Origin: Alphaproteobacteria bacterium UBA6411
GTDB taxonomy: Bacteria; Pseudomonadota; Alphaproteobacteria; CAAGCB01; CAG-977
DNA length: 64,000 nucleotides
Assembly: GCA_002438565.1 (NCBI GenBank)
Contig: DJPN01000021.1
Coordinates: 61,684 to 125,683, forward strand
Reading direction: 5' to 3'
Part shown: piece by piece, positions 14,310-36,130 of the stretch
Layout of the letters: each line of letters opens with the position of its first letter
Numbering within the stretch: the stretch's first letter is position 1
Translations under genes and position numbers: made by a program
Notes under the pieces: model-generated
Database searches by the model: none
Seen by the model: only the letters and a program-made list of their open reading frames with translations
What the model was told of the DNA's origin: nothing

Positions 14310-14601
14310 AGATTTTTTCCAAAAAAAGACTCGGGGTGGTGCGCATTGTTAAGAGGCGTCCCGAGTGTTGTTACAGATTATATAACCGATTCCGATGAAA
14401 AAATCAACTGCTTTTTTAGGGAAAAATTAGTAGGTTCTTTATGCTACATAATTTACTCCCTTTTAGTTTTTTTTAAAATAAGTCATGAAAGCTTCAATGT
14501 TTTGTTTTGTAGAAAAAAGAAAAAATAAATCAAATTTTGTTGTGTTTGATTCTATTTAATAAAATTTATATGGAAATCGTTTTCAGAATAATTATCTTTT
14601 T

Positions 14602-15366
14602 CTAAACACTTAAAAAGTCTTTGTATTGTTTTTCTAGGTAATCCCGATTTGGAATAAACCGATTTGGCAATCTGATTTTTGAATTGTTCCGTTCAAGGAA
14701 AAGACGTGAAAATTCAGGATCATTTGTTTTTTCTTTCTCAAATTTTTTAGAAACAACAAATTTGAAATCCGGAGAAATTGAGAAAATACCAGCATCATAC
14801 GCTTTATGATAGAGGGTGCTCATACATAAGCCGTTATGCGGATTTGTTCTTAAATCAACTTCATTAGCCCACCCTAAAATATGTGCCGCTTCTAGTAATG
14901 ACGTAACGGATAAATTTGAAATACAGCATTTGTTTTCATAAGAAGAAAGAACCATTTGTCTGAAAAAAGACTGATTTACGCGTCGCTTGGTTATTGTTTC
15001 GCGGTCTTCTCCTTTTGGGAAATCAATTCTTTCTATATCTTCAATATGGTTTCGTTCTTTGTATAAAGTCAGAAGCTTTTCTGATTTAAAAGCTAATTCA
15101 TCCCAATTTTTTGAAAATTCTTCCCAAATTTGTTGATCTAATACACTTGTGTTAGTTAATCCTGTTACACCTCTTGCTTTTAGTTCTGGATCAAACGCTC
15201 CAAAATTTCCAAGTTTCATAGCTACGGCTGATGGTGTTCTTCCAATCAATTTTGCTACTTCAATAACTTTAGGATTTGTTTTTACACATTGGCTAAAAGG
15301 AATTTTGCAATAGAGATTGAAGGCTAATATTTCTTCGTCTCTTGTCCATTTTTTTCTTTCATTCAT
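14602..15366 (-). CDS. HNH endonuclease family protein (HNH_2-like), 254 aa; AT-rich gene
   Basis: C-terminal ...LEAAHILGWANEVDLRTNPHNGLCMSTLYHKAYDAGIF... HNH motif; markedly lower GC than its neighbours, with an AT-rich flanking spacer. Confidence 0.55.
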   Translation of the reverse strand: MNERKKWTRDEEILAFNLYCKIPFSQCVKTNPKVIEVAKLIGRTPSAVAMKLGNFGAFDPELKARGVTGLTNTSVLDQQIWEEFSKNWDELAFKSEKLLTLYKERNHIEDIERIDFPKGEDRETITKRRVNQSFFRQMVLSSYENKCCISNLSVTSLLEAAHILGWANEVDLRTNPHNGLCMSTLYHKAYDAGIFSISPDFKFVVSKKFEKEKTNDPEFSRLFLERNNSKIRLPNRFIPNRDYLEKQYKDFLSV

Positions 15367-15616
15367 CTGGCGGCACCCTTTTAGAGAAACATCTCTAAAA
15401 CTCTATCAATGTTTTACAATTTTGCAAGTTTGATGTCGCCTAAGAATTTAAAATATTCTGCGGCTTTGAGAGACCGCGAACGGATATTCATTCTGTTTGC
15501 GATCCCGTTTATATGTTCCTGTTCGGTTGCTGTAATACACCGCTACCAAGTTATGAATCTCCGTTCGGAGATTGGCAAACCCATTGCAAATCCCGCCATG
15601 TTTTTTCTTCGAGAGA

Positions 15617-15856
15617 TTACTTTTTCATCAGCGTTGTGTTCAATATGCGGACGGTTTGATAGGTGTTGATACCGACCTTTCGGACTTGTTCTTCAAGTTT
15701 TGTCAGCAAGAGGATTTCGTCATAATGCGGAATTTTTATCTGATCCTCCCTGCAAAAATGGACAACCGGATCAGGCGGGACAAGGCATTGTTTTTCGGCG
15801 ATAAGAGTGTCCCAGATTTCTTGTTCTATTCTGAACGACTTGACAATACGCGCCAT
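15617..15856 (-). CDS. Possible ribbon-helix-helix (CopG/antitoxin-like) small protein
   Basis: N-terminus MARIVKSFRIEQEIWDTL resembles RHH beta-strand/helix patterns; it conflicts with an overlapping plus-strand ORF, so the call is weak. Confidence 0.25.
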   Translation of the reverse strand: MARIVKSFRIEQEIWDTLIAEKQCLVPPDPVVHFCREDQIKIPHYDEILLLTKLEEQVRKVGINTYQTVRILNTTLMKK

Positions 15857-16080
15857 AAATGCCTCGCAGAGTTAAGCGTTCAAATGTGTGTGACAAAAGT
15901 ATTATAGCCGAACGAAAATTTGAACACAACGCCCGCTTTTCGTCATACGAAAAGGCTATCCTGCCCAAAGACCACCCTCAATAAAATCAATCACTTGCGG
16001 CGGGGCGGAAAAGGCGTTTTTTTCGTTTTGTCGGACAAACGGGGTATCCCGCACCGACAAAACACCCCGTTTGCTTCTTG

Positions 16081-16401
16081 TCATATTTCCATCAATTCCG
16101 CGATTTTTTCACTGACAATGTTTGCGGCTTGAATGACAGGTTTCAGCGACAAATGCGTGTAGCGGTGCGTGATCGAATTGATGCTGTGTCCCAACATTCC
16201 CGCAATAATGTTATCCGAATATCCCATTTCCGCCGCCATCGTCGCGAAACTGTGCCGCAACGCGTGAGGGCAAAATTCCGCTTGTCCGACCGCCGCTTTG
16301 ATATGCTTTTCAAAGAACGCGACCAACGCCATCTTTTGCGGTTTGCCGAAGACGTATTCGTCCGCCGCCGGCGGCTGTTTTTCCTCTTTCAGCTTTTCCA
16401 T
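16081..16401 (-). pseudogene. C-terminal fragment of a second tyrosine recombinase (HALRHSFATMAAEMG ... GHSINSITHRYTH)
   Basis: Catalytic HxxR and H...Y motifs present, but the ORF is only 106 aa. Confidence 0.5.
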
Positions 16402-16622
16402 AAACCGCTTTGCCCCGGAGCCGAAAGGTCTGTCTTGCGCTCCGGTTTCTGATCGGAGACAAACAAGTTTTCAAAATCGCCAAGCCGTCCCAACGCGTTC
16501 GCCAAACGCAATAACGAATCAAAAGCGATCAGTCCTGTTCTTTCAAACCAGCGCAAAGACGCAAGCGTAACATCGGAACGGTCGCAAAGTCCTTGCTGAG
16601 ACAGGTTTTGCTCCAACCGCAA
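16389..16622 (-). CDS. XRE-type helix-turn-helix protein (possibly N-terminally truncated)
   Basis: LEQNLSQQGLCDRSDVTLASLRWFERTG resembles the XRE HTH; the start context is unclear. Confidence 0.35.
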   Translation of the reverse strand: MRLEQNLSQQGLCDRSDVTLASLRWFERTGLIAFDSLLRLANALGRLGDFENLFVSDQKPERKTDLSAPGQSGLWKS

Positions 16623-16844
16623 CGCCGAACGCCGGTCACAATCTTGACCAGATCATTTTGCCCCGCCCATTTCGATAAATCCTGAAGGTATTTAGGTCTG
16701 TCAATAAGCTGTATCGAAGCGTTTCCCATTGAAGAATCCTCCATTTATATAAGCACTTGACACTTTGTACTTTTTGTAAAATCAATGGTTTCGTAAAACG
16801 CAGTTTACAAAATATGATTTTTATCGTTTTTGAAAAGCGGTCCT

Positions 16845-18584
16845 TTATTCCCGATACAAGTGGCTTAAATCCAACCCGTCGTATTTCAGCTTGCAATTCA
16901 CCGTTTCGCGCAGGACTTTAAGGCTGACTTCTCCATAATGTTCGGAAAGGCTTGAGCCGCGCTCCCATCCTTGAATACGCGTTACAAACTCCGGATTGGC
17001 TTCATTATTCCGAAACTCGGTACGCACCGTATGACGGAAACTGTGGAAGACGTGACCTTCTTCAAACTTATCCGCTTTGGCTTTGATCCCTTTGTTCAAG
17101 CTGTCTAAAAAACGACCGAACCATTTGGAAATATCATCGGAATAATGTCCTCGTGCATTGACGCGCAGTTCGGGAAACAGCCTCTTTTCTTTGCGCATTT
17201 CTTTCACATAGTTCAAAAAACCGATCTTTATCAATTCATTGTGTAGGGGAACAAGGCGAATCCCCGCCTTTGTTTTGACATGCTTTTCTCCTTCATCGTT
17301 AATGCTGATGACCCAAACATCGTCAATTTGTCGGACATCGTTCGGGCTCAGTTGGCATAATTCGTTACATCTCGCGCCTGTGAAAATCCCCAACAACGGA
17401 ATCCAAAAACGCGCATGTCTCGGATGTGCGTTGCCTTTGATTGCATATCCACGTTTGTCGTCCCGACACCCTGTGTAAATTGGAGCGTTGAAGATATAAC
17501 TCAGTTGCCTTGCCGAAAAAGACAAACGTTTTATTTCGTCTTTTTCATTGGTTGCACACGGAACATCAACCGTATCATACGGATTCTCGATCAGATATTT
17601 ATACTTAACCGCCCAATCGAAAAAGCGTTTGATGACAACGAAGTAATCACCCAATGTTTTTGATCCGATGCATTCCGTCGGGTGTTTCTTTCCCCGTTCT
17701 ATATCTTTCAATACGTTGTATGTATCAGGTTTGCTGCGCGCGCTGTTTTTCGTGATGAACGGTAACAGTTCGACGGCATGTTGCAAGTCTTCCGTCGTTA
17801 CGGAACGCACCGTTTTATCTTTGCCCAAGATCTCTTGTAAAATATGGATTTTCTTGCTGACACGGTTTTTGGAATCGGCGGATTTGTTCTTGCGGGAATT
17901 CTGGTTGTTGTACACCTCCGCCAATGCGTCCAATGTCATATCGGGTTTTAACGGCGTTCTTAACAACATCGGAGAAGAAACGATATTCTCCCCGGTCAGT
18001 CCCGAAGGGACGCCCACAGTCAGACGTTGAGGAGGAATATCTGCTAATCCGATAGCGCAATGATGCATAAAATCGCAAAACTGCATTTCAGCGCGCATAA
18101 ATGCTTCTTCTAAGACTCGTTTGGAAGATTCTGTGGGAAACGGATAATTATTCCGCAGTAAAAAGGACTGACACTTCCGTTCAATAATCACGTAATCCGC
18201 CACGGCATATTTTGAACGCAACTGCGCAAACCGTTCCATATACGGTTCCGGTAACAACGGTTTTCCTGCGCAATTTTCCCGTTCTTCCGCAATTCGGGTC
18301 AGCAAATATTCGTATGCGAACGTTTCCGCTTGACTGCGGTCATAATCCAGCGTGTGTTCGTCCTTGTCGTATCCCATTTTTTTTGCCGTTTTTCCTCTGA
18401 AGTCCAACCGTTCGTACAAGTCCGACATTACCATGATATAGCGTCTTTGCGCAATTTGCTTATTCTTGGTTCTGAGGGACACCCACAGTTGTCTTTTGCC
18501 GACCAGACTACGGAAAGCAGTCGGTACATTCAATACCGCATAATACGATGTCCCACGATTATAAAGGCTCATCGTTACCTGCAA
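16845..18584 (-). CDS. int: Tyrosine integrase (phage/island integrase) adjacent to the tRNA-Gln 3' end
   Basis: N-terminal arm-type DNA-binding-like region; C-terminal HSFRHTVRT ... SEHYGE catalytic motifs; located ~100 bp from the tRNA 3' end, the classic island arrangement. Confidence 0.7.
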   Translation of the reverse strand: MQVTMSLYNRGTSYYAVLNVPTAFRSLVGKRQLWVSLRTKNKQIAQRRYIMVMSDLYERLDFRGKTAKKMGYDKDEHTLDYDRSQAETFAYEYLLTRIAEERENCAGKPLLPEPYMERFAQLRSKYAVADYVIIERKCQSFLLRNNYPFPTESSKRVLEEAFMRAEMQFCDFMHHCAIGLADIPPQRLTVGVPSGLTGENIVSSPMLLRTPLKPDMTLDALAEVYNNQNSRKNKSADSKNRVSKKIHILQEILGKDKTVRSVTTEDLQHAVELLPFITKNSARSKPDTYNVLKDIERGKKHPTECIGSKTLGDYFVVIKRFFDWAVKYKYLIENPYDTVDVPCATNEKDEIKRLSFSARQLSYIFNAPIYTGCRDDKRGYAIKGNAHPRHARFWIPLLGIFTGARCNELCQLSPNDVRQIDDVWVISINDEGEKHVKTKAGIRLVPLHNELIKIGFLNYVKEMRKEKRLFPELRVNARGHYSDDISKWFGRFLDSLNKGIKAKADKFEEGHVFHSFRHTVRTEFRNNEANPEFVTRIQGWERGSSLSEHYGEVSLKVLRETVNCKLKYDGLDLSHLYRE

Positions 18585-24410: not shown

Positions 24411-24517
24411 ATCCGCCGGCGAGAAGGACGCGGGACGCGTTCGGCCGCCCTTGGCGACGACGCCGTCAAGCGGGGGCGAAAGCCCCGAGCGTTAGCGAGC
24501 AACCGCGGCGGGGTGAT
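24411..24517 (+). repeat. tRNA-Arg-associated structured element, copy 2 (homologous to 19001-19113)
   Basis: gcgagaaggacgcgggacgcgttcgg ... gcgacgacgccgtcaagcgg-hairpin(gggggcgaaagcccc)-gagcgttagcgagc ... aaccgcggcggggtgatac (degenerate copy of the tRNA-Arg(UCU) 3' end). Confidence 0.6.
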
Positions 24518-24548
24518 ACTTTTTATTTTTTGATTTTGGCTCTAAAAT

Positions 24549-24560
24549 CAAAAAAAAAAA
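24549..24560. repeat. Homopolymeric A12 tract within an AT-only inverted repeat (ttttttgatttt / aaaatcaaaa)
   Basis: Direct count of 12 consecutive A. Confidence 0.8.
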
Positions 24561-24819
24561 ACGCACTTAAATCAAAGCGTTACAACTAATCAGATTTAAC
24601 GTCCGTTTGATTCGGGAATTTCGGGCAAAATCTGCCGCCACTCGAAATGATAGAAAATTTGTCATTCTTGCAAAATATTATTGCAATCAAAAGCTAAGTT
24701 TGCTATATGCAATAAAAACGGAGGATATCTTTGAAAAAATCTTTCGTTCAAACGAGGAAGGCAGGGGGATAAAATCGAATGAACACAGCATTTGTCAGAT
24801 ATTGCGGATATATAAAATG

Positions 24820-24831
24820 CCCCCCCCCCCC
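24820..24831. repeat. Homopolymeric C12 tract ~120 bp upstream of hldE, just downstream of a TTGTCA-15-TAAAAT promoter-like sequence
   Basis: Direct count of 12 consecutive C; lies in the intergenic/5' leader region of the heptose operon. Confidence 0.8.
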
Positions 24832-24951
24832 TATACGAACGGGAAGCCCCGCTTATGTCCAGAGCAATCAGCTTAAAACACGGGGGAAAAGTGCCGTCAA
24901 CGCGCTTCTCAATCTAAATCCCGTTCACTTGATAAATTGAGGAGAGGCTTC

Positions 24952-26424
24952 ATGCCCTTACTGGCTTCGTATATTAGAAATTTCAAAAATTTACGCATTC
25001 TGGTTATCGGAGACATTATGCTGGATCGTTTCGTATACGGCAAAGTCGAACGCATTTCGCCCGAAGCGCCTGTCCCCGTGTTTGATTTCAAAAAATCGTC
25101 CGACATGCTGGGTGGAGCGGGAAACGTTGTCGCAAATTTAGTGTCTTTGGGGGTGAAGACCTCTTTTATCGGCGTGGTCGGGCAAGATGACAGCGCGCGG
25201 GAAATTTCATCCTTGTTGGGAAAATTGGGGGCGTGTCATCATTTGATTCGGCTGAAAAACTATCCGACAATCGTCAAAACGCGCTTGATTGCCGGCAACA
25301 CGCATTTGCTGCGCGTCGATTGCGAAGAAAAATGGTTTACGCCGGATTCTGTTTTGCCGACCATTCGTTCCATTATTGAAAAAGCGGTAAAAAATGCGGA
25401 TTTGGTTCTTTTGTCGGATTATGCCAAGGGTGTTTTGGCCAAATCGACGGCGCAGGCGATTATCGCCGAATGTTGCAAAGCGGGTAAAAAAGTCCTTATA
25501 GATCCGAAAGGTTCCGATTGGTCGAAATACGAAAACGCAACTCTGGTCAAGCCGAATTTGAAAGAATTCAAAGAAGTGTGCGGACTTTCCGTCAATCCGT
25601 CGGATTCCGATTTTACGAAACATCTGTCCGACGGCGCAAAGCTGATTTTTAAACGCTATAAAATCAAAAGCCTGCTGATTACCTTGTCCGAACACGGTAT
25701 GGCGTACATTCATTCGTCCTCTCCCGACGAGGTTTATCAAATTCCCACCCAAGCCAAAGAAGTTTTCGACGTATCGGGTGCGGGGGATACGTCTTTGGCG
25801 ACCTTTGGCGCGGCATTCGGCGCGGGCGCTTTGCCCAAGGATGCGATGAAGCTGGCAAACACGGCGTCGGGCATAGTCGTCGGCAAAGTCGGAACGGCGT
25901 GCATTTCCGCAAACGAATTGGAAAACGCCCTGTCCGAACGCAATCCGGCCGCCGTGCCGAAAAGCAAAATCGTATCGCCGGAACAAGCCGCCGAAATCGC
26001 CGTTGAATTAAAGAAAAGCGGCAAAAAAACGGGCTTTACCAACGGCTGTTTCGATTTATTGCATTTGGGACATTTGCGATCGTTTGAAAATGCCAAAAAG
26101 GAATGTGACGTTTTGTTCGTCGGCGTGAATTCGGATGCGAGCGTCAAGCGCCACAAAGGCGATTCCCGCCCGATCCAAGATGAAAAAACGCGCGCTTTGC
26201 TGGTCGCTTCATTGGAAACGGTGGATTATGTCATCGTTTTTGACGACGACACGGCGCTTCCTTTGGTCGAAAAAATCCGTCCCGACGTTATCGCGAAAGA
26301 GGGTTATTTGCTTCAAAACTGGCCGGAGGCGCAATTCGTCGTTTCTTACGGCGGCCGCGCCGTTACGTTAAAGCGCGTTGACGGCTATTCCACCACGCAA
26401 ACCGTTGAAAGGATTAAACACTGA
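24952..26424 (+). CDS. hldE: Bifunctional D-beta-D-heptose 7-phosphate kinase / D-beta-D-heptose 1-phosphate adenylyltransferase
   Basis: N-terminal PfkB-like kinase domain and C-terminal cytidylyltransferase-like domain (GCFDLLHLGHLRSFENAKKECDVLFVGVNSD); gaggagagg RBS before the internal ATG. Confidence 0.85.
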   Translation: MPLLASYIRNFKNLRILVIGDIMLDRFVYGKVERISPEAPVPVFDFKKSSDMLGGAGNVVANLVSLGVKTSFIGVVGQDDSAREISSLLGKLGACHHLIRLKNYPTIVKTRLIAGNTHLLRVDCEEKWFTPDSVLPTIRSIIEKAVKNADLVLLSDYAKGVLAKSTAQAIIAECCKAGKKVLIDPKGSDWSKYENATLVKPNLKEFKEVCGLSVNPSDSDFTKHLSDGAKLIFKRYKIKSLLITLSEHGMAYIHSSSPDEVYQIPTQAKEVFDVSGAGDTSLATFGAAFGAGALPKDAMKLANTASGIVVGKVGTACISANELENALSERNPAAVPKSKIVSPEQAAEIAVELKKSGKKTGFTNGCFDLLHLGHLRSFENAKKECDVLFVGVNSDASVKRHKGDSRPIQDEKTRALLVASLETVDYVIVFDDDTALPLVEKIRPDVIAKEGYLLQNWPEAQFVVSYGGRAVTLKRVDGYSTTQTVERIKH

Positions 26425-26990
26425 TGCAGCAGGAAATCATTGCTTCGTTTCAGGAAAACGTTGCCGGTTTTACGGAAATCCAAACTTTGGCGCCCGTTAT
26501 CGAAAAAATCGCGCTGATATGCATTGACGCGATCCGCAACAACCGCAAAGTGATGTTTTGCGGCAATGGCGGTTCGGCGGCGGATTCGCAGCATTTGGCG
26601 GCGGAGCTGGTCGGGCGGTATAAAATGAACCGCCCCGCAATGAATGCGATAGCTTTGACAACGGACAGTTCGATTTTGACGGCGATCGGGAACGATTACG
26701 GTTATGACACGATTTTTGAACGCCAGGTCGAAGGCTTGGGGCAAAAAGGCGACGTTTTGGTCGGCATATCGACTTCGGGCAATTCAAAAAATGTGCTGCG
26801 CGCTTTTGAAATGGCGCGCAAAAAAGGCGTTTCGACGGTTGCTTTTACGGGAAAATCGGGCGGCAGAATGAAAGAAACGGCCGATATTTGCGTCAACGTG
26901 CCGTCCGACGTCACAAACCATATTCAAGAAATGCACATTGCCGTCGGGCATTTGATTTGCGGATTGGTCGAAAGGGTTGTCAATGGCTAA
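26424..26990 (+). CDS. gmhA: Phosphoheptose isomerase (SIS domain)
   Basis: SIS-domain motifs ...VMFCGNGGSAADSQHLAAEL ... GISTSGNSKNV...; start overlaps the hldE stop. Confidence 0.85.
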   Translation: MQQEIIASFQENVAGFTEIQTLAPVIEKIALICIDAIRNNRKVMFCGNGGSAADSQHLAAELVGRYKMNRPAMNAIALTTDSSILTAIGNDYGYDTIFERQVEGLGQKGDVLVGISTSGNSKNVLRAFEMARKKGVSTVAFTGKSGGRMKETADICVNVPSDVTNHIQEMHIAVGHLICGLVERVVNG

Positions 26991-27495
26991 AGCTTTGTTT
27001 TTGGATCGCGACGGTACAATCAACATTGATTACGGATACGTTTTTGAACCCGAACGGTTTGAATTCGTTGACGGAATCTTTGATTTATGCCATGCGGCGC
27101 AATCCAAAGGCTTTAAAATCATTGTTTGCACGAACCAATCGGGCATTGCGCGCGGGTATTTCACCGAAGCCGACTTTCAAAAAATTACGGCGCATATGGT
27201 GAAAAAGTTTTCTGAACAACGCATTGAAATCGCGGACGTTTTTCATTGTCCGACATTGGACGGCATTGACCGCAAGCCCAATACGGGAATGTTCGTCAAA
27301 GCGCGCGACAAACACGGAATCAATATGGCGGCAAGTATTTCCTTGGGTGACAGCGAACGCGACGTGATTGCGGGAATAAACGCAGGCGTCGGAACAAATT
27401 ATTTGTTGTCGAAAAAGAAAATCGCCGCTCCGATTTGCCCCGTTGTTTCAAGCTGCCGCGAATTGGCGGAACTCATTGAAAAAGGTGTCGAATGA
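26977..27495 (+). CDS. gmhB: D,D-heptose 1,7-bisphosphate phosphatase (HAD, histidinol-phosphatase-like)
   Basis: ALFLDRDGTIN motif I, CTNQSGIARGYF motif; overlaps the gmhA end. Confidence 0.8.
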   Translation: MSMAKALFLDRDGTINIDYGYVFEPERFEFVDGIFDLCHAAQSKGFKIIVCTNQSGIARGYFTEADFQKITAHMVKKFSEQRIEIADVFHCPTLDGIDRKPNTGMFVKARDKHGINMAASISLGDSERDVIAGINAGVGTNYLLSKKKIAAPICPVVSSCRELAELIEKGVE

Positions 27496-28616
27496 ATTAT
27501 TTTGACAAGCTGGACCATCGATCCGCCCGCATGCGCGAAAAATATCCGACTCGTCCGCGCAAAGCCGCCGCGTCAATGTTGATGTGGACTGTTAAAAACC
27601 TGTTTCCAAAGGCGGACAAAACCGTTTTTACGGATGGCAGGCTGCATATTGCCGTCAGCGTTTTGGGCGGATTGGGCGATTTGTTTTTTGCCGCGCGGTA
27701 TGTCGAAAGGCTGTCCCGTTATTTTGGACAAAAAGTTACCGTTTGCATGGAAAATAGCGCGGCGTACGCTCAGCCTGTTTTTGGCGGATTAAGCGGCGTT
27801 GAAGCGATTGTTGCCCCAAACGGCGCGCCGTGCGATATTAAAATTCGATTGGTTCGTTTTCCGGAAATCGTTTTTTGCGACTTTAAACGCTTAAAAGCCG
27901 TCGGCGACAGCAAAATCAAAGCTTATGTGCAGTCTTTGCTTGATTTTCGATCCGGCTTTCCTCTGGTATACAACAACGATTATTTTGGGTATCGCTATGC
28001 CCAAGCAAAGGGCAAAAAACGCGAAGATCAACCGGATATTGACGGGATTTTGCATTTGGCGGACGTTTCGCTGAACATACCTGCGGCCGATCCGCAAATT
28101 GGCAAGCCTTTTATCACGATTCAAACTGGATACGGCGAACATTTTAAGGGTGTGGAATCCGAAACGCGCCAATGGGGTGTCGAAAAATATGAACGGCTGA
28201 TTGAATTGCTAAAGCAGGAATACCCGCGTTTTAAGACTGTTCAAATCGGGGCGGATTATCATCCGCGCATCCAAGAAACGGATTTCGATTTGCGTGGCAA
28301 AACATCAATTCCGGAAGTGTTCGGTTTGCTGAAAAACGCCGCTCTGCATATTCAGCAGGAAGGCGGATTTGCAATCGCGCGGCACTATTTGTGCGGCAAA
28401 CCGTCGGTCGTTTTGTTCGGCCCGACGGATGAAAAATTCTTGGGGTTTCCGGAAAATTTAAATCTTCGCGCGCCGGGATTCGAATGCATATGCGAAGGAC
28501 TGACCCAAAAATGGTATCAAAAATGTTTGAAAACGGGCGGTTGCGCGGCGTGCATGCGGGCGTTGTCCGCACAAACCGTGTTTGAAAAAATCAAAGAAAG
28601 CAAAATATTGGAGTAA
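27492..28616 (+). CDS. Glycosyltransferase family 9 (LPS heptosyltransferase-like) with a ~60-aa N-terminal extension
   Basis: GT9-type C-terminal region (...LRGKTSIPEVFGLLKNAALHI...GPTD...); operon position after gmhB. Confidence 0.65.
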   Translation: MNYFDKLDHRSARMREKYPTRPRKAAASMLMWTVKNLFPKADKTVFTDGRLHIAVSVLGGLGDLFFAARYVERLSRYFGQKVTVCMENSAAYAQPVFGGLSGVEAIVAPNGAPCDIKIRLVRFPEIVFCDFKRLKAVGDSKIKAYVQSLLDFRSGFPLVYNNDYFGYRYAQAKGKKREDQPDIDGILHLADVSLNIPAADPQIGKPFITIQTGYGEHFKGVESETRQWGVEKYERLIELLKQEYPRFKTVQIGADYHPRIQETDFDLRGKTSIPEVFGLLKNAALHIQQEGGFAIARHYLCGKPSVVLFGPTDEKFLGFPENLNLRAPGFECICEGLTQKWYQKCLKTGGCAACMRALSAQTVFEKIKESKILE

Positions 28617-28619
28617 TTT

Positions 28620-29828
28620 ATGAAAAATTATTTTGAAAAACTTGAACGCAGAGTTCAAAAATATAAAACAAAATATGCAAATCGCCCGCGCAAAGCCGCA
28701 TTCAAACTCGCCTTGTGGAATACATTGTGCGTGTTTAAACGGCACAAACGTCAAGATATCGTTGATTTACAAAGCATAACAAAACCTGTCAACAAAATTG
28801 CACTTGCAATTAACGGCGGCATAGGCGATTACATCACAGCAATAAATTATGCTGCATACCTTTATAATTTTTTAAACAAACAAACACCGATAGATATTTT
28901 TGTAAAAAATCCCAAAAGCATGAAAACTCTTTTCAGCAAATCTGTCAATTTTGATTTTTTTGAACGGGATTCCATTCATGAAAAAAAGGAATATCCGCTT
29001 AAACTGAATTTGAATAGATTTCCAGAGATACTATACTGCAATGAAACCGCCCTGCATGAAATGATGCCGAATGTTATTCCTTTGCTCAACGCTTGGGAAA
29101 AAATTAAAAAAGAAGCGGGGTTGTATTTTGAAATTGACCCCCGCGCAGACGCCTTAACCGTGCAGTACGCGCAAGTTAACGGTGCCAAAAAAAGAATACA
29201 GCAACCGGATATTGACGGAATATTAGGTGTTAAGGAAGAACACCTTATAAAACTTTATCCCGAAAGTACAACGGAAGTTTTAGAAAAATTCGGATTAAAC
29301 GATTGCGTTTTTATCACAATGAACCGCGGAACGGATACAGGCAACAAAGATAACGAAGTTACGCGTATGTGGCCCTTGGAAAATTATGCAAAACTTGTAA
29401 AATTGATAAAAAACAAATATCCTCGATGCAAAATCGTGCAGTTGGGATATTCCCCCGAATGGTGCAGGCTCATAGACGGCATTGATATTGATTTGCGCGG
29501 AAAAACAACGCTTTTTGAACTGAAGTCCCTGCTTTTTGCATCCGCCTTGCACATAGATTACGAAGGAGGAATGGTTCATTTACGAAAAGCGTTAGGGGTG
29601 GGAAAATCCATAGTCCTGTTTGGTCCGACAAACCCTAACTGGCTAGGATATGATACAAATATCAATATCTGCACAAACAAATGCTGTTTTTGTGAAAATC
29701 TCACTCCGAATTGGCAAAAATATTGCTCGAATCATAAATTTCCACACATTTGCATGGAAAGCATAACTCCTGAAATGGTATTCAATAAAGTCAACGCAGT
29801 TTTATCTTCTGTAAAAAGCCGAGTGTAA
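28620..29828 (+). CDS. Second, paralogous GT9-like glycosyltransferase; AT-rich codon usage
   Basis: N-terminus MKNYFEKLERRVQKYKTKYANRPRKAAFKLALW parallels the N-terminus of the upstream gene; noticeably lower GC. Confidence 0.65.
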   Translation: MKNYFEKLERRVQKYKTKYANRPRKAAFKLALWNTLCVFKRHKRQDIVDLQSITKPVNKIALAINGGIGDYITAINYAAYLYNFLNKQTPIDIFVKNPKSMKTLFSKSVNFDFFERDSIHEKKEYPLKLNLNRFPEILYCNETALHEMMPNVIPLLNAWEKIKKEAGLYFEIDPRADALTVQYAQVNGAKKRIQQPDIDGILGVKEEHLIKLYPESTTEVLEKFGLNDCVFITMNRGTDTGNKDNEVTRMWPLENYAKLVKLIKNKYPRCKIVQLGYSPEWCRLIDGIDIDLRGKTTLFELKSLLFASALHIDYEGGMVHLRKALGVGKSIVLFGPTNPNWLGYDTNINICTNKCCFCENLTPNWQKYCSNHKFPHICMESITPEMVFNKVNAVLSSVKSRV

Positions 29829-29842
29829 AACACTCGGCTTTT
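29812..29842. terminator. Bidirectional rho-independent terminator (agccgagtg-taaaa-cactcggct flanked by A- and T-runs)
   Basis: Perfect 9-bp stem with a 5-nt loop between convergent genes. Confidence 0.6.
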
Positions 29843-29849
29843 CCCTGTT

Positions 29850-30206
29850 TCAGTATGGATATTTCAGACGAATTTCCGCTTTTGTGTTCAGCCACAGCGT
29901 TTTCTTTTCATCCGCATCCGGACTGTTTGTCGCAACCGCTTCATCATAGTCGAATTTCAACGGATCGGCGAATGTGCAAAAAGCTTGCTGTCTGTTTTTG
30001 CGGGCGGTTTCCCTCGCGATTTCAAGCGGAACGGACGGCAACGCGCTTTTCGCATAATATCCGCCGTCATATCCGACAACGATTTCTTCATCGGTTTGCG
30101 ACACGGTGAAATCGTTTAATCCGATAATTTTGCAGTTTTCGGTCAATTCCGCTTCCGTTTTGTTAAAAGCGACGATTTTCCCGTTTTTGGTTGCTGTATG
30201 CATCAG
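29850..30206 (-). CDS. Small protein (~118 aa from MHTATKNG) translationally coupled to the tail-fibre gene; possible tail-fibre chaperone/assembly factor
   Basis: TGATG stop/start overlap with the upstream tail-fibre gene; the longer ORF-track version (start 30380) overlaps the fibre gene and is unlikely. Confidence 0.4.
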   Translation of the reverse strand: MMHTATKNGKIVAFNKTEAELTENCKIIGLNDFTVSQTDEEIVVGYDGGYYAKSALPSVPLEIARETARKNRQQAFCTFADPLKFDYDEAVATNSPDADEKKTLWLNTKAEIRLKYPY

Positions 30207-31072
30207 TTGTTTTCCCCTTGTGCGTAAATAAATCTGAACACGTTTGTTTTGCCCTGCAGGCTGTAGCCGATTGCAACGGAACTTCCTTTTCGCGCAGGCA
30301 AAGCCACAGAGAGCTCGTATCCCGCATGCGACGATACGATGTTGTATCCCAAATTCGACATGTCTTTGATACACACCCATTCACCGGCGTATTTGGCGTC
30401 TTTTGCCAACACGAACCACCCGTCCGCGGGTGCCGTGTAAAAATGCCCGCTTTCCTGCAATGTCAAATCAACGTATTTACCGCTCGGCATGCTTAAATTT
30501 GAAACAACGGATTTCCCCTCTGCTGTCAAATTGCCCAAATCCGCATTTGCTTTTGTTTCCAGCATCGCCGCCGTATTGACCTCCGATGACGCGGCGTTCG
30601 CTGCAGACGCTGTTGCGGCGGCCGCTTTCTCGACAGCCGTTTGGGCGGCCGCAGTGCAATCGGAAACCGCTTTTCTAATGCTGGGAATCAAGCTGTCCGC
30701 CGCCGTGTCGTCGAAAATATCCACTGTTACGGCGCGCGCGGATTTTTCCGCCAGCTGTTGCACCTGCATCGTCAGCTTGTCAAAGTTGCGTTCCAGCGTT
30801 TCGGCGTGCAAAATCTCGTTGTCGCGGTAGTCCGTTTCCTGCGTCAAAGGCACTTCGCGCACAATCGCGATTTCCGCCCCGTTTTCGGGAGCGTCCGCAA
30901 ACACCAGATTGCCGCCTTTGACCGTCCAGTCCGTCCGTTCCGTCTGTATGTCGTTCTTTTTCTGCCTGACTTTGATATGCTCCTTTTCCAAAAAGGAAAA
31001 CGGGATTGCAAACTCTTTCGCAACCCCGTTTCCGATATAAATCACCTTGTTTGTTTGACTGCTTACCGTCAT
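30203..31072 (-). CDS. Phage T7-type tail-fibre protein (N-terminal Phage_T7_tail-like domain, Ala-rich shaft, C-terminal tip), 289 aa
   Basis: KVIYIGNGVAKEFAIPFSFLEKEHIKV and DNEILHAETLERNFDKLTMQVQQLAEKSA resemble the T7 gp17 N-terminal region as recalled from memory; gagagga RBS 7 nt upstream. Confidence 0.6.
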   Translation of the reverse strand: MTVSSQTNKVIYIGNGVAKEFAIPFSFLEKEHIKVRQKKNDIQTERTDWTVKGGNLVFADAPENGAEIAIVREVPLTQETDYRDNEILHAETLERNFDKLTMQVQQLAEKSARAVTVDIFDDTAADSLIPSIRKAVSDCTAAAQTAVEKAAAATASAANAASSEVNTAAMLETKANADLGNLTAEGKSVVSNLSMPSGKYVDLTLQESGHFYTAPADGWFVLAKDAKYAGEWVCIKDMSNLGYNIVSSHAGYELSVALPARKGSSVAIGYSLQGKTNVFRFIYAQGENN

Positions 31073-31086
31073 TTTTTATCCTCTCA

Positions 31087-31112
31087 ATAAAAAAGCGGGG
31101 ATTTTCCCCGCC
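31087..31112 (-). terminator. Rho-independent terminator after the adenosine-deaminase gene (gcgggga-tttt-ccccgc plus T-run on the minus strand)
   Basis: Hairpin plus T-run read on the minus strand. Confidence 0.55.
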
Positions 31113-31182
31113 GTTCACAGTCAACGCACTTTCTCAATCTTACAGCATATTGTGATTATTTTTTCATGGATGTCAAGGCGCT

Positions 31183-33447
31183 TTACTTAAACCGGCAATC
31201 ATTTTGATTTTCTTCCTTGACAAAGCTTTGTTCCAGCGAGCTTTTGCGCAGGTATTCCACAAAATCGTACACTTCTTCCGCAGAAGCTCCGTTTTCCAAC
31301 AAAGTTTTGGCAATCACGGCATATTCCATCCCCAAACTGGTCTGGAACACCGCGCTGTCATCCGTGTTGACGCATACCGGCACATCGCAATCCGCCGCGG
31401 CCAAAGAATAAAGGCCGTGCCTGTTCAGCGCAAACAGCGGCAAATCCGCAAAGTTGTCTATCGGCGATATTTTCCGGTTTGACGACGGATTGGCTTCAAC
31501 GGCTATTCCTTTTTCCGCAATCAGCTTTTTCAGAAAAGACTGACATTCGGACAGAACTTTCAAATACGTTTCGTCAACGCGGATTTTAACCTCTTTGTTC
31601 CTTTGTTTTTTATATTTTTCATCGTAAAAATAGCACCAATTCAGCTTGCGCGCCGTTTCGCTTCGGACAGCTTCGCGATAAGCGGCATTTCCACCGTTTT
31701 GCCGCCAAACTTCGAGAGAATTCGGGGCGTCCCCTTCTTGATTGTACAGTTCGGGATCATCCGCCCTCAACCGCCATGAAGCCAGATAAGTGTCTATATC
31801 CACGGCGCAAAAATCGCCCCGTCCTTCAAAAATCACATTTCTGATTTCCGTAAAGCGGTTTGAAACCTCAAACGACAGCAAAGGGTCAGCCCCCTGTTTC
31901 CTCAGCATGAAAAACAGCCACGCCAGATTGTCCAGATATTCCCCCGCCGGTATGACGACACATTCCATTCGTGTTTGCGCCAGCTGCCGCGGGCATGCCC
32001 CCAAAGCCAATGCATGTCCCAATCTGTCCCCGCGCCGGAAATTAAAGAAATCAATCACTTCATAGATGGCGCGCAAACCGGAACACAGCGACGTGTACAC
32101 TTCCCCGACATGGTAAGTAAACGATAAATCCGCCTTTTCGGCGCGGCATCGTCTGAAATACGGCGCATACAATTCGGGCTTCACGCACAATTCATCCCCC
32201 GCCGCGTCAATGCCGACGACATATTGAGAATAGGAACTGTTCAGCAGTCCTAAAATTTTTCTTGATTGATTGTTTATATCGCTTGTTTGGTGTAAAAGCG
32301 TTTTTCCTTTTTTCTTTATAAAGTGAAATATATACCCGCAATTCGGTTTGTTTTCGCCGTAAACGGATGTCAGCGAAGCGTCCATTTCGCTTTGAATATA
32401 TTTGAACTTTCTTTTTGTTTGAGGTGCGATTCTGAATTCGATTTTTGAAACAATATTTTCTTCGCTATACTTTTCAGCTATGCTTTTGTAAAGTTCTCCT
32501 TTGCCGCTGAACAGCAAATCTTTTTTAGCTTGACACTTTTGGAATTTTTCAAACCCCATGCCTATATTGTCCTGTGTAAACATAAAGAATTTTTGCACAA
32601 AACCTGTCAGATACAGATTGAATAAATCTCTGAACAATGGCTGAAAATCGTCTGTTTTTAAAAAACAGTTTTTCAAAAATCGCCGCTCACATTCGTAAAT
32701 TTGTCCGTTTTTATTTTTTTCGTCCAAACAATGCTGCATCCAGCGAAAATTATCCATATATTGCGCAACATTTCCATAATCTTTCGCGTCAAGAATGTTC
32801 ATGATGTCTTTCCGCGATAAAAAATTTTCATTCATAATATAATATTCAAGATATATTCTCAGCATTTTTAATTTCAGAGAAAAAATATCATCAAATTCTT
32901 TTATTTTGCAATAAAATGGCTTTTTGTAAATAAACGCGTACCAATTCAGCTCCGTCGAATATCCCGAAGCGTTCAAATGCATGTGGTTTTCGGCAACACC
33001 TTTTTCTTTCAAAGTGCTGCACAGCCGATGATTGTCATGTCCCGGCAAAAAAGAAAGCGGCAAATCTTTGGACGGGAACGCTGCGATATAAATATCGGCG
33101 GGCGCAACATTGATAAAATCATTCCATTCCAATAAATTGTCAAAGTTGATTTCGAGCTTTCTCCCTTTCGGGATCAAGTATTTTTTTGCCGCTTTAACAA
33201 ACATCTCATCGGCAAAGAAATGTTGCTTATCCCCGATTTTTTCATTGATGATGTTGTCCAGCAAAGCTTCCGAATAATTGTTTGGAAACAGCCTCAAGTA
33301 CCGGTCTTTAACCGTTTGATACGTTTTTTCATCTTTTAAATCAAAAGCCTCGCCGTCCGTATAGTCCGCGGAAACAATCCGTTCGCACAGATTGTTAAAA
33401 TCCGCGTCCTTATACGCACAACGAATCAATCGCTCCAAGTTCCTCAT
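31183..33447 (-). CDS. Large divergent adenosine-deaminase-family protein (RADAR RdrB-like), 754 aa
   Basis: All four ADA-fold metal/catalytic motifs in order: NHMHLNAS (HxH), YHVGEVY (HAGE-like), DRLGHALALG (GH), CVNTDDSAV (SLNTDD); large insertions and a ~130-aa N-terminal extension; AT-rich. Confidence 0.7.
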   Translation of the reverse strand: MRNLERLIRCAYKDADFNNLCERIVSADYTDGEAFDLKDEKTYQTVKDRYLRLFPNNYSEALLDNIINEKIGDKQHFFADEMFVKAAKKYLIPKGRKLEINFDNLLEWNDFINVAPADIYIAAFPSKDLPLSFLPGHDNHRLCSTLKEKGVAENHMHLNASGYSTELNWYAFIYKKPFYCKIKEFDDIFSLKLKMLRIYLEYYIMNENFLSRKDIMNILDAKDYGNVAQYMDNFRWMQHCLDEKNKNGQIYECERRFLKNCFLKTDDFQPLFRDLFNLYLTGFVQKFFMFTQDNIGMGFEKFQKCQAKKDLLFSGKGELYKSIAEKYSEENIVSKIEFRIAPQTKRKFKYIQSEMDASLTSVYGENKPNCGYIFHFIKKKGKTLLHQTSDINNQSRKILGLLNSSYSQYVVGIDAAGDELCVKPELYAPYFRRCRAEKADLSFTYHVGEVYTSLCSGLRAIYEVIDFFNFRRGDRLGHALALGACPRQLAQTRMECVVIPAGEYLDNLAWLFFMLRKQGADPLLSFEVSNRFTEIRNVIFEGRGDFCAVDIDTYLASWRLRADDPELYNQEGDAPNSLEVWRQNGGNAAYREAVRSETARKLNWCYFYDEKYKKQRNKEVKIRVDETYLKVLSECQSFLKKLIAEKGIAVEANPSSNRKISPIDNFADLPLFALNRHGLYSLAAADCDVPVCVNTDDSAVFQTSLGMEYAVIAKTLLENGASAEEVYDFVEYLRKSSLEQSFVKEENQNDCRFK

Positions 33448-34076
33448 TGGTCTTCCGGCATAAACTGCGGGTATTTTTTCAGAAGTTCTGTCAAATCTTT
33501 ATAATACCAGCTTTTGTATGATTTTTTACCGACATTTTTCAAATGGTTTGAAATATTCTTCGCTTTTGAAGCATCATCGTCTAAAAGAGCTTTAGACATT
33601 TTGTTTGAAATATCTTTCCAATCTTCGAACGTGATATTTACCAAGAAGTTTCTTACTTTTTCTTCATCAGCACTAAGAATAGGATTATCAAGTTTCATAT
33701 TTTCAAGAATTCTAACATCATGTATATTAAATAATTCACTACAATTATCTTGGCAAAATTTCATTTTTGACAACATTTTTTTTAAACCGATCTCATATTG
33801 AGAATGATTTTTAGAATCTCCTTTCTCATCCAGCAACCAGTTAATTTTTTCATAAATTTTCTCAACAAAGCAACTTTTCTTATTATAAAATGTAACTCGC
33901 ATAAACACATCCACATCAAACAAAGAATAAAACAAATATCCGCCATTCTGAATGGCTTTCAACAGATAATTTTTCTTCAGAACAGCGCTCAACGGATCCG
34001 ACCTATAATTTATGTTATTATTATCATTCCATTCAGATTTTTCATCATTTTCAATAACTATTTGATCATGATACAT
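33444..34076 (-). CDS. Hypothetical 210-aa protein within the RADAR-like cassette (no TM segment, no known motif)
   Basis: ORF overlaps the upstream NTPase gene by 19 nt and the downstream deaminase gene by 4 nt; very AT-rich. Confidence 0.45.
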   Translation of the reverse strand: MYHDQIVIENDEKSEWNDNNNINYRSDPLSAVLKKNYLLKAIQNGGYLFYSLFDVDVFMRVTFYNKKSCFVEKIYEKINWLLDEKGDSKNHSQYEIGLKKMLSKMKFCQDNCSELFNIHDVRILENMKLDNPILSADEEKVRNFLVNITFEDWKDISNKMSKALLDDDASKAKNISNHLKNVGKKSYKSWYYKDLTELLKKYPQFMPEDQ

Positions 34077-35986
34077 ATGTTTTTAAAGCTTGAGAAATCT
34101 CTCTTTTCCGAAAAACTTTTAGGACGAGCTGATTTCCACGTTCTTTCATTCTTTATTCTTGAATAGCAAATTTGCTTTACAATTTGCTTCAAACCTTCAG
34201 CAGTTTTATGCGTTTTTAAAACAGAAACATGGTCAACAAGATTACTATCCTTTTGAGCATAAAAATAATCATCAGGCATAAATTTGCAATTTACAAGTTT
34301 ACTGTAAGCATTGTCAGGCAAACAATATTCGTCTCCATCACGTCCAATATCTTCATTAGATTTTATTAAATCTGCATTTGTACTTTCGTCTTTATTTTTT
34401 TCTTCATCTTTTTCATTTTTAACATTTTCTATATCATGCTTTTCATCATCCAAAAAATCATCTGCATCAACAGGAGCTTCTTTATTTTCAGTCAAATCAT
34501 CTTCTTTTAGAAGCATTAAATTGTTCAACAAAGAAATTGAGTAAAGCAATTTTATTAAATAGCAAAAATACATAACCTGTTCATCAAAAGGAATGCATCT
34601 CTTTACAACTCCCGTGAATTGAATTACATCACCCAACATAACATTGTACGGTTCCGTTCGTTCAATATAAATCAAATCGCCGTTATGGTATTTTTCAACC
34701 AGCACTCCGTATTCACTTTCACCTTGGGATGCATAGTAATCTCTAAGCAATTTATCCAATTTTGAGCACATGTAATAATTTTTATTTTCAACACTTGTTT
34801 TGATCCACTCATCTAAAACAGAATAATATTTATCGTCCAAATTAGCTTTTGCTCTGGAAAGTACATAATTTTGATAATTTTTCAAATTTTGTTGTAAGCT
34901 TTCTTTTAAAACACTTCCCTTTTCATCTCGCATTTCGGGCATTTCAACCAACATACGGACAAAGGCCAACATTTCGCGCAACCCGTTCGGATAAATCAAA
35001 TGCACGCGTTCCTTTTCATCTACAGGATCCAAAGGAAGTGCGACTTTGTCCCGAACCAGCTTTTCCATAAAATCATGAAAATTTGTTTTTTCGTATTCTT
35101 TTTGTTTTTCATCGGAAATTTTATTAACAAACGGCTTCAAAATATCCCATGAGGTTTCATTGAAAAATTCTTTCTGCCCCTTCAAGTAGATGCGGCGGGA
35201 AACGGGCATTTGTTTTTCATAAAATTGAATGGCTTGATCTCTGATTTCCGAAATTGAAATAATTTCTTTATCAATCAAATTTATATTCTGTTTTATGAAT
35301 TGATCTTGAATGATATTCAAAAGCTGAACTTCGCGAAATGACAGAATCACGATGCAGTTTTTATTCAGCCATTTTTGAATATCTTCAATCATGCGGTAAA
35401 CATATTTGTTCGACACCAAATCCAAATCGTCGATGCAAACAATCATTTTCGTATCTTTGTCTTTTCCGATTGCTTTGTAAAAGCTTGTTATCAATTCTTT
35501 TAATAATTCGTCAAAGCGGTAACGCTTTTGGATCGTCCGTACAATATCGGAAGGATGATTGTCTTCGTAAAAACGTTCCTTGTTTGATTTGATATGTGAA
35601 ATCACTTCCATGATTTCATTCAATTTTTTATGGAATTCAGCAAATTCACCACTACCGTTTTCTTTAGACTTTTCAACCTGTTGAGCCAAAACACTGATGA
35701 AAAATTCCGGAATCAACAAAGTATCGTCAAAAATGCTGGGATCTATCGTATCAGTTACATAAAAGTTTTTATTTTCATCAAAATGTTTTTGAACAGCTTT
35801 AATCAAGGATGTTTTGCCGCATCCGCGATTGCCGACAATGCTGATGACATTGCTGCTGTTCTTTTCAAAATCATATCCTTTGCAAAGCTTTTCAATCCGC
35901 TCTATTTCATCTTTGAAAATATCTTCGGTTTCGCCCAACGGCCCCGTGATTTTTTCCCAATCGAATTGAACAGCATTTTCAGCCAT
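34058..35986 (-). CDS. P-loop NTPase (RADAR RdrA-like/KAP-like), ~642 aa, with an acidic low-complexity C-terminal region
   Basis: Walker A GNRGCGKTSL; Walker B IVCIDDLDLV (DDLD as in KAP NTPases); start assigned to the MAENAV ATG (gaaagg RBS 9 nt upstream) rather than the ORF-track start, which overlaps a terminator. Confidence 0.65.
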   Translation of the reverse strand: MAENAVQFDWEKITGPLGETEDIFKDEIERIEKLCKGYDFEKNSSNVISIVGNRGCGKTSLIKAVQKHFDENKNFYVTDTIDPSIFDDTLLIPEFFISVLAQQVEKSKENGSGEFAEFHKKLNEIMEVISHIKSNKERFYEDNHPSDIVRTIQKRYRFDELLKELITSFYKAIGKDKDTKMIVCIDDLDLVSNKYVYRMIEDIQKWLNKNCIVILSFREVQLLNIIQDQFIKQNINLIDKEIISISEIRDQAIQFYEKQMPVSRRIYLKGQKEFFNETSWDILKPFVNKISDEKQKEYEKTNFHDFMEKLVRDKVALPLDPVDEKERVHLIYPNGLREMLAFVRMLVEMPEMRDEKGSVLKESLQQNLKNYQNYVLSRAKANLDDKYYSVLDEWIKTSVENKNYYMCSKLDKLLRDYYASQGESEYGVLVEKYHNGDLIYIERTEPYNVMLGDVIQFTGVVKRCIPFDEQVMYFCYLIKLLYSISLLNNLMLLKEDDLTENKEAPVDADDFLDDEKHDIENVKNEKDEEKNKDESTNADLIKSNEDIGRDGDEYCLPDNAYSKLVNCKFMPDDYFYAQKDSNLVDHVSVLKTHKTAEGLKQIVKQICYSRIKNERTWKSARPKSFSEKRDFSSFKNICIMIK

Positions 35987-36043
35987 TATCATCATCCTTT
36001 CGTTGATATGCAACTTATCGGATGATGATAAGACGTTTTGTCG

Positions 36044-36065
36044 CCATTGACTATATAGGCAATGG
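36044..36065. promoter_or_regulatory. Inverted repeat CCATTG-N10-CAATGG surrounding a TATATA -10-like element, 58-80 bp upstream of the NTPase start
   Basis: Perfect 6-bp arms; positioned in the only intergenic space that can hold the cassette promoter. Confidence 0.35.
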
Positions 36066-36093
36066 TTGTACGCCTTTCGGCTATATTGGCGCA

Positions 36094-36130
36094 CAAAAAA
36101 AACGCGGGCAAACAAAACCCGCGCTTTTTA
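36094..36130. terminator. Bidirectional rho-independent terminator (cgcgggcaaacaaaacccgcg flanked by A8 and T5)
   Basis: Perfect 7-bp GC-rich stem between the PfkB kinase 3' end and the RADAR-like cassette. Confidence 0.6.

Follow-up and report, generated by a model that had tools for sequence, protein, structure and literature searches.

Introduction

The mechanism of the RADAR anti-phage defence system is known from the Escherichia coli, Citrobacter rodentium and Streptococcus suis systems (PMC9994260). The AAA+ ATPase RdrA forms heptamers that dock on a dodecameric shell of RdrB and enhance RdrB activity; its C-terminal domain, which is helical and unique to it, is the proposed phage sensor (PMC9994260). 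Upon infection, RdrB deaminates ATP and dATP to inosine triphosphate (ITP) and its deoxy form (dITP), which poison the nucleotide pool so that the infection is aborted; active-site mutations in either RdrA or RdrB abolish the accumulation of ITP in vivo (PMC9994260). The RADAR system of S. suis, the source of the RdrA structure 8FNU, protects E. coli against phage, and the RdrA proteins of different RADAR systems are only 22–25% identical (PMC9994260). Here we analyse a locus in a 64,000-nucleotide (nt) stretch of contig DJPN01000021.1 from Alphaproteobacteria bacterium UBA6411; the whole stretch is called the window, and the locus is numbered in window positions. We conclude that the locus is very probably a two-gene RADAR operon (rdrA, rdrB) whose rdrA gene is frameshifted in this strain.

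A first reading of the same DNA (the original prediction) had described a non-canonical three-gene cassette, in which a P-loop NTPase and a deaminase flank a separate soluble protein of 210 amino acids (aa), and had proposed a new RADAR subtype or a system with different partners. Its identification of the two enzymes holds, while the apparent novelty is traced below to one 2-bp frameshift in rdrA.

Organisation of the locus

Three open reading frames (ORFs) run in the same direction on the minus strand, at 34058–36115, 33444–34076 and 31183–33447. The first would encode 685 aa if a TTG codon were counted as its start; the true start is the ATG at 35986, giving a 642-aa protein identical to protein cluster P0123. 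The features of the locus are as follows.

36095..36124, minus strand: terminator-like hairpin of the upstream pfkB gene (GCGCGGG, 9-nt loop, CCCGCG, T8), read from the sequence
36025..36053, minus strand: promoter-like site of rdrA (TAGTCA, 17-nt spacer, TATCAT), a consensus match only
34058..35986, minus strand: rdrA N-terminal fragment, 642 aa, AAA+/KAP-type ATPase with Walker A and Walker B
34080..34084, minus strand: frameshift site, an A5 run, from comparison with the L008 allele (A3)
33444..34076, minus strand: rdrA C-terminal fragment, 210 aa, from identity to the 3' end of L008 rdrA
31183..33447, minus strand: rdrB, intact, 754 aa, putative RADAR adenosine (ATP/dATP) deaminase, from PADLOC, NCBIfam, the PDB and an AlphaFold2 model
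31086..31112, minus strand: intrinsic terminator-like hairpin (GGCGGGG-AAAA-TCCCCGCT followed by a T-run), from a sequence scan

The upstream hairpin divides pfkB from the RADAR operon; our automatic scan accepts loops of at most 8 nt and therefore missed it. A Shine-Dalgarno-like AAGGA lies 9–13 nt ahead of the rdrA ATG. The N-terminal fragment further contains the helical insertions, together with the greater part of the helical lobe, and ends with the out-of-frame residues NICIMIK and a TAG stop. The stop codon of rdrA and the ATG of rdrB share the sequence ATGA at 33444–33447, and the downstream hairpin (31112–31094), a strong one, is 70 nt past the rdrB stop. The order is rdrA then rdrB, with the genes adjacent and co-directional, as RADAR demands. 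The GC content is 0.32 in rdrA and 0.42 in rdrB, compared with 0.49 in the remaining window, which bears out the AT-richness originally noted for the cassette; the terminators predicted at both ends are likewise found.

The deaminase

The 754-aa protein matches Pfam A_deaminase (1.3e-13), PADLOC RdrB (1.4e-29) and NCBIfam RdrB (5.5e-44), and as a single sequence it finds EcRdrB in the PDB with E = 7e-27. A profile built from the family of this deaminase aligns end to end with 8fnv and 8fnw (E ~1e-83, profile positions 66–831 of 835). The top eight fold matches of the AlphaFold2 model, whose predicted local distance difference test (pLDDT) score is 91.6, are all RdrB, with template-modelling (TM) scores of 0.70–0.76; ordinary ADA and Cad1 follow ~20 orders of magnitude behind. 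The adenosine deaminase motifs that had been recognised in the sequence are all present, with H155/H157 (HxH), H446/E449 (HVGE), H478 (GH) and D696/D697 (NTDD) invariant in 45 homologues. H155/H157 align with the catalytic H152/H154 of EcRdrB, which are needed for turning ATP into ITP and whose mutation abolishes activity (PMC9994260). The protein falls within the ~750–900 aa of RdrB, its alignment takes in the regions of the RdrB-specific insertions, and its set of zinc-binding and catalytic residues is complete. It is, as had been predicted, an RdrB-type deaminase and an end-to-end homologue of the solved RdrB.

Comparison with the systems of E. coli P0304799.3 and C. rodentium DBS100 (RdrB 8FNV/8FNW/8HR7; RdrA 8FNT/8HR8) shows that RdrB is homologous over its whole length, so that the alignment spans the regions of the three RdrB insertions; their RdrB proteins are ~45 aa longer than the one here. 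Cad1, the CARF-adenosine deaminase effector of type III CRISPR, also has the ADA fold and converts ATP to ITP, but its similarity to the present protein is weak and confined to the deaminase core (PADLOC CARF_ADA 2e-14; Foldseek E ~1e-4 vs 1e-27 for RdrB). The CARF_ADA match spans deaminase residues 322–490 only and includes no CARF region; the partner also differs, the deaminase here being paired with an RdrA ATPase. Housekeeping Add/ADA (PF00962) has the TIM-barrel amidohydrolase core in common with it, and the zinc and catalytic residues of the two are the same. However, it is a single domain of ~330 aa that functions in purine salvage, whereas the RdrB here is ~420 aa larger and located in a defence-type operon. 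The best Pfam A_deaminase stretch aligns only the C-terminal ~110 residues of our protein, and its score of 55 bits with TIGR01430 (cut-off 216.6) indicates that it is not a housekeeping adenosine deaminase.

Separately, an RdrB-like deaminase without an RdrA partner occurs in several Bacteroidales genomes (L049, L059, L062 and L054), for example in Prevotella sp. 885 (L049:6315–12601, NZ_NOVE01000029.1). This deaminase has 869 aa, matches PADLOC RdrB at 3.6e-33 and comes third in a tight operon, after a radical-SAM/SPASM protein of 446–459 aa with a partial match to PADLOC pVip (3e-24) and a DpdE/ZorD-like SNF2 helicase of 753–774 aa (3e-108). A full-text literature search found no description of this SAM/SNF2/RdrB-like operon, which may be a distinct system that reuses a RADAR-type deaminase.

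The ATPase

The 642-aa ORF matches Pfam KAP_NTPase (3.8e-10) and contains Walker A (GNRGCGKTS) and Walker B (CIDDLDLV) motifs, in which G52, G55, G57, K58, S60 and D186/D187/D189 are invariant in a 37-sequence family alignment; the description of the protein as a P-loop NTPase with a KAP-like Walker B is correct. In repaired or intact form, the ATPase matches the S. suis RdrA 8fnu. The intact ATPase of the closely related locus L008 finds the S. suis RdrA (8fnu_A) with E = 4e-35, and the profile of the 37-sequence family does so with E = 2e-98, aligning profile positions 5–827 of 832 with residues 3–872 of the 907-residue chain. This match includes the motifs NY..DPLSAVLKK and FYSLFDVDVFMR, both located within the 210-aa ORF, and the region of that ORF aligns to SsRdrA residues ~650–872. 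An AlphaFold2 model of the intact L008 protein (pLDDT 73) has RdrA as all of its top 20 fold matches in the PDB, the best being 8fnu (TM 0.59/0.63); Cdc6/ORC-type AAA+ proteins come next, at only E ~1e-2. The intact allele and the family profile therefore describe an AAA+/KAP-type ATPase of the ~800–950 aa expected of RdrA, with a helical C-terminal domain. The P-loop protein is RdrA, end-to-end homologous to the solved RdrA, and the 210-aa ORF is the last ~210 residues of its alpha-helical C-terminal domain, read in another frame. The acidic low-complexity stretch, originally taken as the tail of the protein, proves to be an internal segment (residues 523–572 of the L008 model, pLDDT <50).

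The RADAR system of S. suis SS993 (PMC9994260) is likewise a two-gene rdrA–rdrB operon, and its RdrA (SsRdrA, 8FNU) is homologous over the full length, including the helical C-terminal domain. The two proteins are similar in length (907 aa vs 846–866 aa here); SsRdrA and the modelled L008 RdrA are only 19% identical (Foldseek), and the hosts are a Firmicute and an alphaproteobacterium; of the pair, rdrA is frameshifted only in the window. In the E. coli and C. rodentium proteins, the similarity to the present RdrA is confined to the ATPase domain (E ~7e-10 with the family profile), as is usual between RADAR clades.

Assignment to RADAR

On sequence grounds, the cassette shows every feature expected of RADAR except the integrity of its genes: a functional RADAR needs both genes intact, and here rdrB is whole and rdrA interrupted. 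We regard the locus as a new and divergent example of an already known system; it has the make-up of a typical RADAR operon.

Several annotation results weigh against this assignment. The PADLOC RdrA models match no member of the family, the NCBIfam RdrA model matches one relative only (48.9 bits), and the RdrB protein reaches 151 bits where the NCBIfam equivalog cut-off is 800. With such low scores, standard annotation would not name the locus RADAR. The PADLOC RdrA models likewise miss the RdrA-type proteins of Carnobacterium and Enterococcus, the nearest named relatives, and so their silence here says little; both genera are in the published RADAR catalogue (Table S1, where fragmented rdrA and rdrB genes are noted; PMC9994260). 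We accordingly set aside the RdrA models of PADLOC and NCBIfam as uninformative on membership, since they miss RdrA-type proteins of genera in the RADAR catalogue. The divergence of RdrA is normal for the family, given the low identity between the RdrA proteins of established RADAR systems (PMC9994260).

The same silence, together with a Pfam result of KAP_NTPase and a partial A_deaminase match only and with a pfkB-family kinase gene next door, could be taken to indicate another ATPase–deaminase system, in which a KAP NTPase has new partners, or an adenosine deaminase of purine salvage. We find this scarcely credible. Profile and fold comparisons both match the two proteins over their whole length to the solved RdrA and RdrB, and the distance to ordinary ADA and Cad1 in the fold search is very large. 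The pfkB gene belongs to the conserved flank on the chromosome, and a terminator divides it from rdrA. Embedding in purine-salvage operons had been named as an outcome that would speak against RADAR, and the more distant homologues have other neighbours: integrases, a relaxase and Fic in L001, type I restriction-modification and Fic in L009, and SIR2 in L094. These are typical settings of mobile elements or defence islands, unrelated to purine salvage.

A frameshift splits rdrA

L008 (GCA_002436595.1) is 97.6% identical to the window at the DNA level and has the clpS-clpA-pfkB flank in common. In place of the 642-aa and 210-aa ORFs of the window it has a single ORF of 866 aa. The alignment of the two reveals a 2-bp insertion, CTTTAAAAACATATG in the window against CTTTAAACATATG in L008, that is, A5 vs A3 at 34084–34080, which is the sole frame-changing difference between them; removal of the two inserted bases restores an rdrA ORF of 846 aa. 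The 210-aa ORF is identical to the 3' end of intact L008 rdrA in 633 of 633 nt and 210 of 210 aa. The 642-aa and 210-aa ORFs are one rdrA gene cut by a 2-bp insertion, and the three-gene layout is a consequence of this frameshift. With it go two of the features that had set the cassette apart from described RADAR loci, an ATPase ~250 aa shorter than RdrA and a separate soluble partner between the enzymes. The 210-aa ORF has no meaningful match to any Pfam, NCBIfam or PHROG family, and no Shine-Dalgarno motif precedes its ATG, in contrast to that of rdrA.

The intact arrangement is the rule among relatives. L001, L003, L006, L008 and L009 each have one NTPase gene of 798–867 aa that overlaps the start of the deaminase gene. 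A scan of one genome per species gave 240 loci with a relative of the deaminase, of which 80 were retained; in 69 of these, a single ORF of 790–1050 aa that matches the hidden Markov model (HMM) of the ATPase family is located directly upstream of the deaminase, and none of the 69 upstream partners is split. No separate middle gene was found in the five intact relatives or in the 69 loci with a single upstream ORF. A literature search on truncated or split RdrA found nothing except PMC9994260.

The frameshifted allele itself is present in four further assemblies. Across 5.1 kb, L010 (GCA_002404635.1), L011 (SRR1747018) and L012 (SRR1747021) have 100% identity to it, as does L013 (ERZ808269) across the 2.5 kb that its contig covers; the L011 and L012 contigs are separate assemblies. 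This recurrence bears on the suggestion that the insertion is an artefact of sequencing or assembly, with rdrA really intact and RADAR fully functional. The indel does sit in a homopolymer, and there is no decay elsewhere in rdrA. However, five assemblies have the identical A5, including the separate contigs of SRR1747018 and SRR1747021, and the gain of 2 bp in a run of three bases is atypical of short-read error, so that we consider an artefact very improbable. The mutation that split the gene is a recent one, since the C-terminal ORF is undamaged.

Two other explanations of the junction were considered and rejected. Programmed −1 frameshifting at the A5 run does not fit: the zero-frame sequence AGC TTT AAA AAC lacks the X XXY YYZ form of a slippery heptamer, and the gene is plainly in frame in close relatives. 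A difference-free tract of 728 nt between the window and L008 starts at the frameshift, but could not be supported as a recombination junction: differences between the two are strongly clumped, and further identical tracts are 320–480 nt long.

Consequences for this copy

The insertion, A3 to A5, shifts the rdrA frame at codon ~646, and the RdrA product would then be a 642-aa protein that lacks the last ~200 residues of the C-terminal helical domain. The remaining 210 codons form an orphan ORF without a ribosome-binding site, with rdrB left intact. Ribosomes would halt ~610 nt short of the rdrB ATG, a start codon that in the normal arrangement overlaps the stop of rdrA, and the loss of translational coupling may reduce RdrB expression. 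In this strain the disrupted rdrA is probably without activity, and we suggest that this copy of RADAR would be unable to sense phage or badly impaired in doing so. The state of the C-terminal ORF weighs against inactivity: it is free of degenerative changes and overlaps the N-terminal fragment by 19 nt, and some reinitiation and assembly in trans could conceivably occur.

Lesions and turnover of the RdrA C-terminus

In three related lineages of the clade, rdrA is independently interrupted. In L096 (6001–8525) there is a stop at codon ~476 and a frameshift in an A-run at ~655; in L097 (4352–6754) a stop at ~487; and in L098 (1058–3527) a frameshift in an A8 run at ~671, in a gene otherwise 99% identical to the intact P0124. 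The rdrB ORF is full length in L096 and L097, and the L098 contig holds its first 159 codons only. Some of the lesions could be assembly errors. With that of the window included, all five disruptions lie past residue 460 (roughly p = 0.02 under uniformity), although A/T runs of at least 6 are spread through the whole of rdrA; we regard this clustering as suggestive but weak.

These breaks are pertinent to the strongest form of the earlier claim, a true three-component RADAR in which the 210-aa protein, as a separate sensor subunit, joins the 642-aa ATPase in trans to give a functional system. The ORF has its own ATG, the short upstream overlap and no damage; the frameshifts of L096 and L098 fall within ~25 codons of the same domain boundary; and every disruption spares the ATPase core. 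On the other hand, the split is limited to one strain-level allele, with a 97% relative intact and all 69 partners elsewhere encoded by single ORFs, and the ATG lacks a Shine-Dalgarno motif. The three frameshifts are at differing nucleotides, those of L096 and L098 are in A-runs, which are hot spots of mutation or of sequencing error, and L096 has a premature stop as well, which fits a decaying gene. We judge a three-component system to be distinctly unlikely.

A broader reading would take in all three frameshifts near the start of the C-terminal domain (646 in the window, ~655 in L096, ~671 in L098), together with the stops of L096 and L097 and the divergence of the C-terminal half between close relatives; the ATPase core is intact throughout, and so is rdrB, as far as the L098 contig reaches. 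The boundary breaks might then be more than decay, with the sensor domain acting in trans or the indels serving as a reversible on/off switch for an abortive-infection system that is costly to carry. This is a speculative proposal to which we give a small chance, and the simple disruption of rdrA in the window remains our preferred explanation.

The C-terminal half of RdrA is also variable in sequence. Comparison of window 33444–35986 with L014:7503–10001 shows that the N-terminal 400 residues of RdrA are 90–97% identical and the C-terminal half only 30–57%, in flanks that are ~90% identical. This implies that the proposed sensor domain is quickly diversified or exchanged, and fast turnover of the C-terminus fits the published proposal that it is the phage-sensing domain.

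Genomic context

The nearest relatives of the locus are in metagenome-assembled genomes (MAGs) of uncultured Alphaproteobacteria from human gut and rumen: HGM16788 (88%), UBA3864, RUG12246 and UBA6324. An origin in Neisseria was considered and dropped, as the DNA uptake sequence GCCGTCTGAA has no matches and the nearest relatives are these MAGs. The operon is located beside pfkB in L008, L014 and L096 as well, and the pfkB-adjacent site is common to strains whose flanks are only ~90% identical. The view that the cassette was recently acquired is thus only partly sustained: its low GC content argues for a foreign origin, but the shared site argues against a recent arrival.

In this uncultured gut-type alphaproteobacterium, the operon is bounded by pfkB on one side and by a 6.7-kb insertion of later date (window 24466–31206) on the other. 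The insertion separates rdrB from an S8 autotransporter gene and is missing from L008 and L014, in which the autotransporter gene directly follows rdrB. The GT9 genes are located within the insertion and therefore are not core flanking genes, as they had been described. The insertion contains the following genes.

24937–26424: HldE-like kinase/adenylyltransferase
26424–26990: GmhA-like SIS protein
26977–27495: GmhB-like HAD phosphatase
27492–28616 and 28620–29828: two divergent GT9 glycosyltransferases with Cys-rich C-termini, the second AT-rich

By its gene content the insertion resembles a module for ADP-heptose synthesis and transfer, which might heptosylate lipopolysaccharide or the adjacent autotransporter. 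A phmmer search of the PDB with both GT9 proteins gave no relevant match, and an autotransporter heptosyltransferase of the TibC/Aah type is a guess.

Further features of the window are as follows.

29850–31072, minus strand: tail-fibre-like gene and small ORF, from Pfam and PHROG matches
13416–14309, minus strand: Abi_2 abortive-infection-like protein (4e-56)
14602–15366, minus strand: HNH endonuclease
16845–18584, minus strand: DUF6538 tyrosine integrase

The first gene downstream of rdrB, just past the RADAR terminator, is not an accessory RdrC/RdrD (SLATT) gene, at which no dedicated search was aimed, but encodes a phage tail-fibre-like protein of 289 aa (Pfam T7 tail-fibre N-terminal domain, 1.3e-6; phrog_1640 'tail protein', 9e-35). 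Next comes a small ORF, the C-terminus of which matches PHROGs with no assigned function (phrog_2432, 1.6e-5). The tail-fibre-like gene stands alone, with no further phage genes beside it, and the short-read contigs L011 and L012 stop ~70 nt inside it. The last three features form a probable mobile or defence islet (13416–18584, minus strand) ~12 kb from RADAR. In L008, the interval from clpA to pfkB contains an insertion with genes for a UvrD-like helicase of 839 aa and a pEK499_p136-domain protein of 136 aa (L008:227–6061), and clpA is called as two ORFs of 668 and 243 aa. The L008 arrangement suggests a hot spot of insertion in the clpA-pfkB-RADAR neighbourhood.

Implications

The finding carries little weight in itself. 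Its practical lesson is that, before a 'novel extra gene' in a defence operon is accepted, comparison with a close relative should exclude a frameshift. It adds a divergent RADAR clade, from uncultured Alphaproteobacteria of gut and rumen, that annotation pipelines probably overlook, PADLOC giving no RdrA match and NCBIfam scores being far under their cut-offs. For RADAR specialists, the recurrent breakage of rdrA and the quick turnover of its C-terminal part in near-identical backgrounds are of modest interest. The repeated breaks in rdrA, with rdrB kept, fit selection against an active system that is toxic when triggered.

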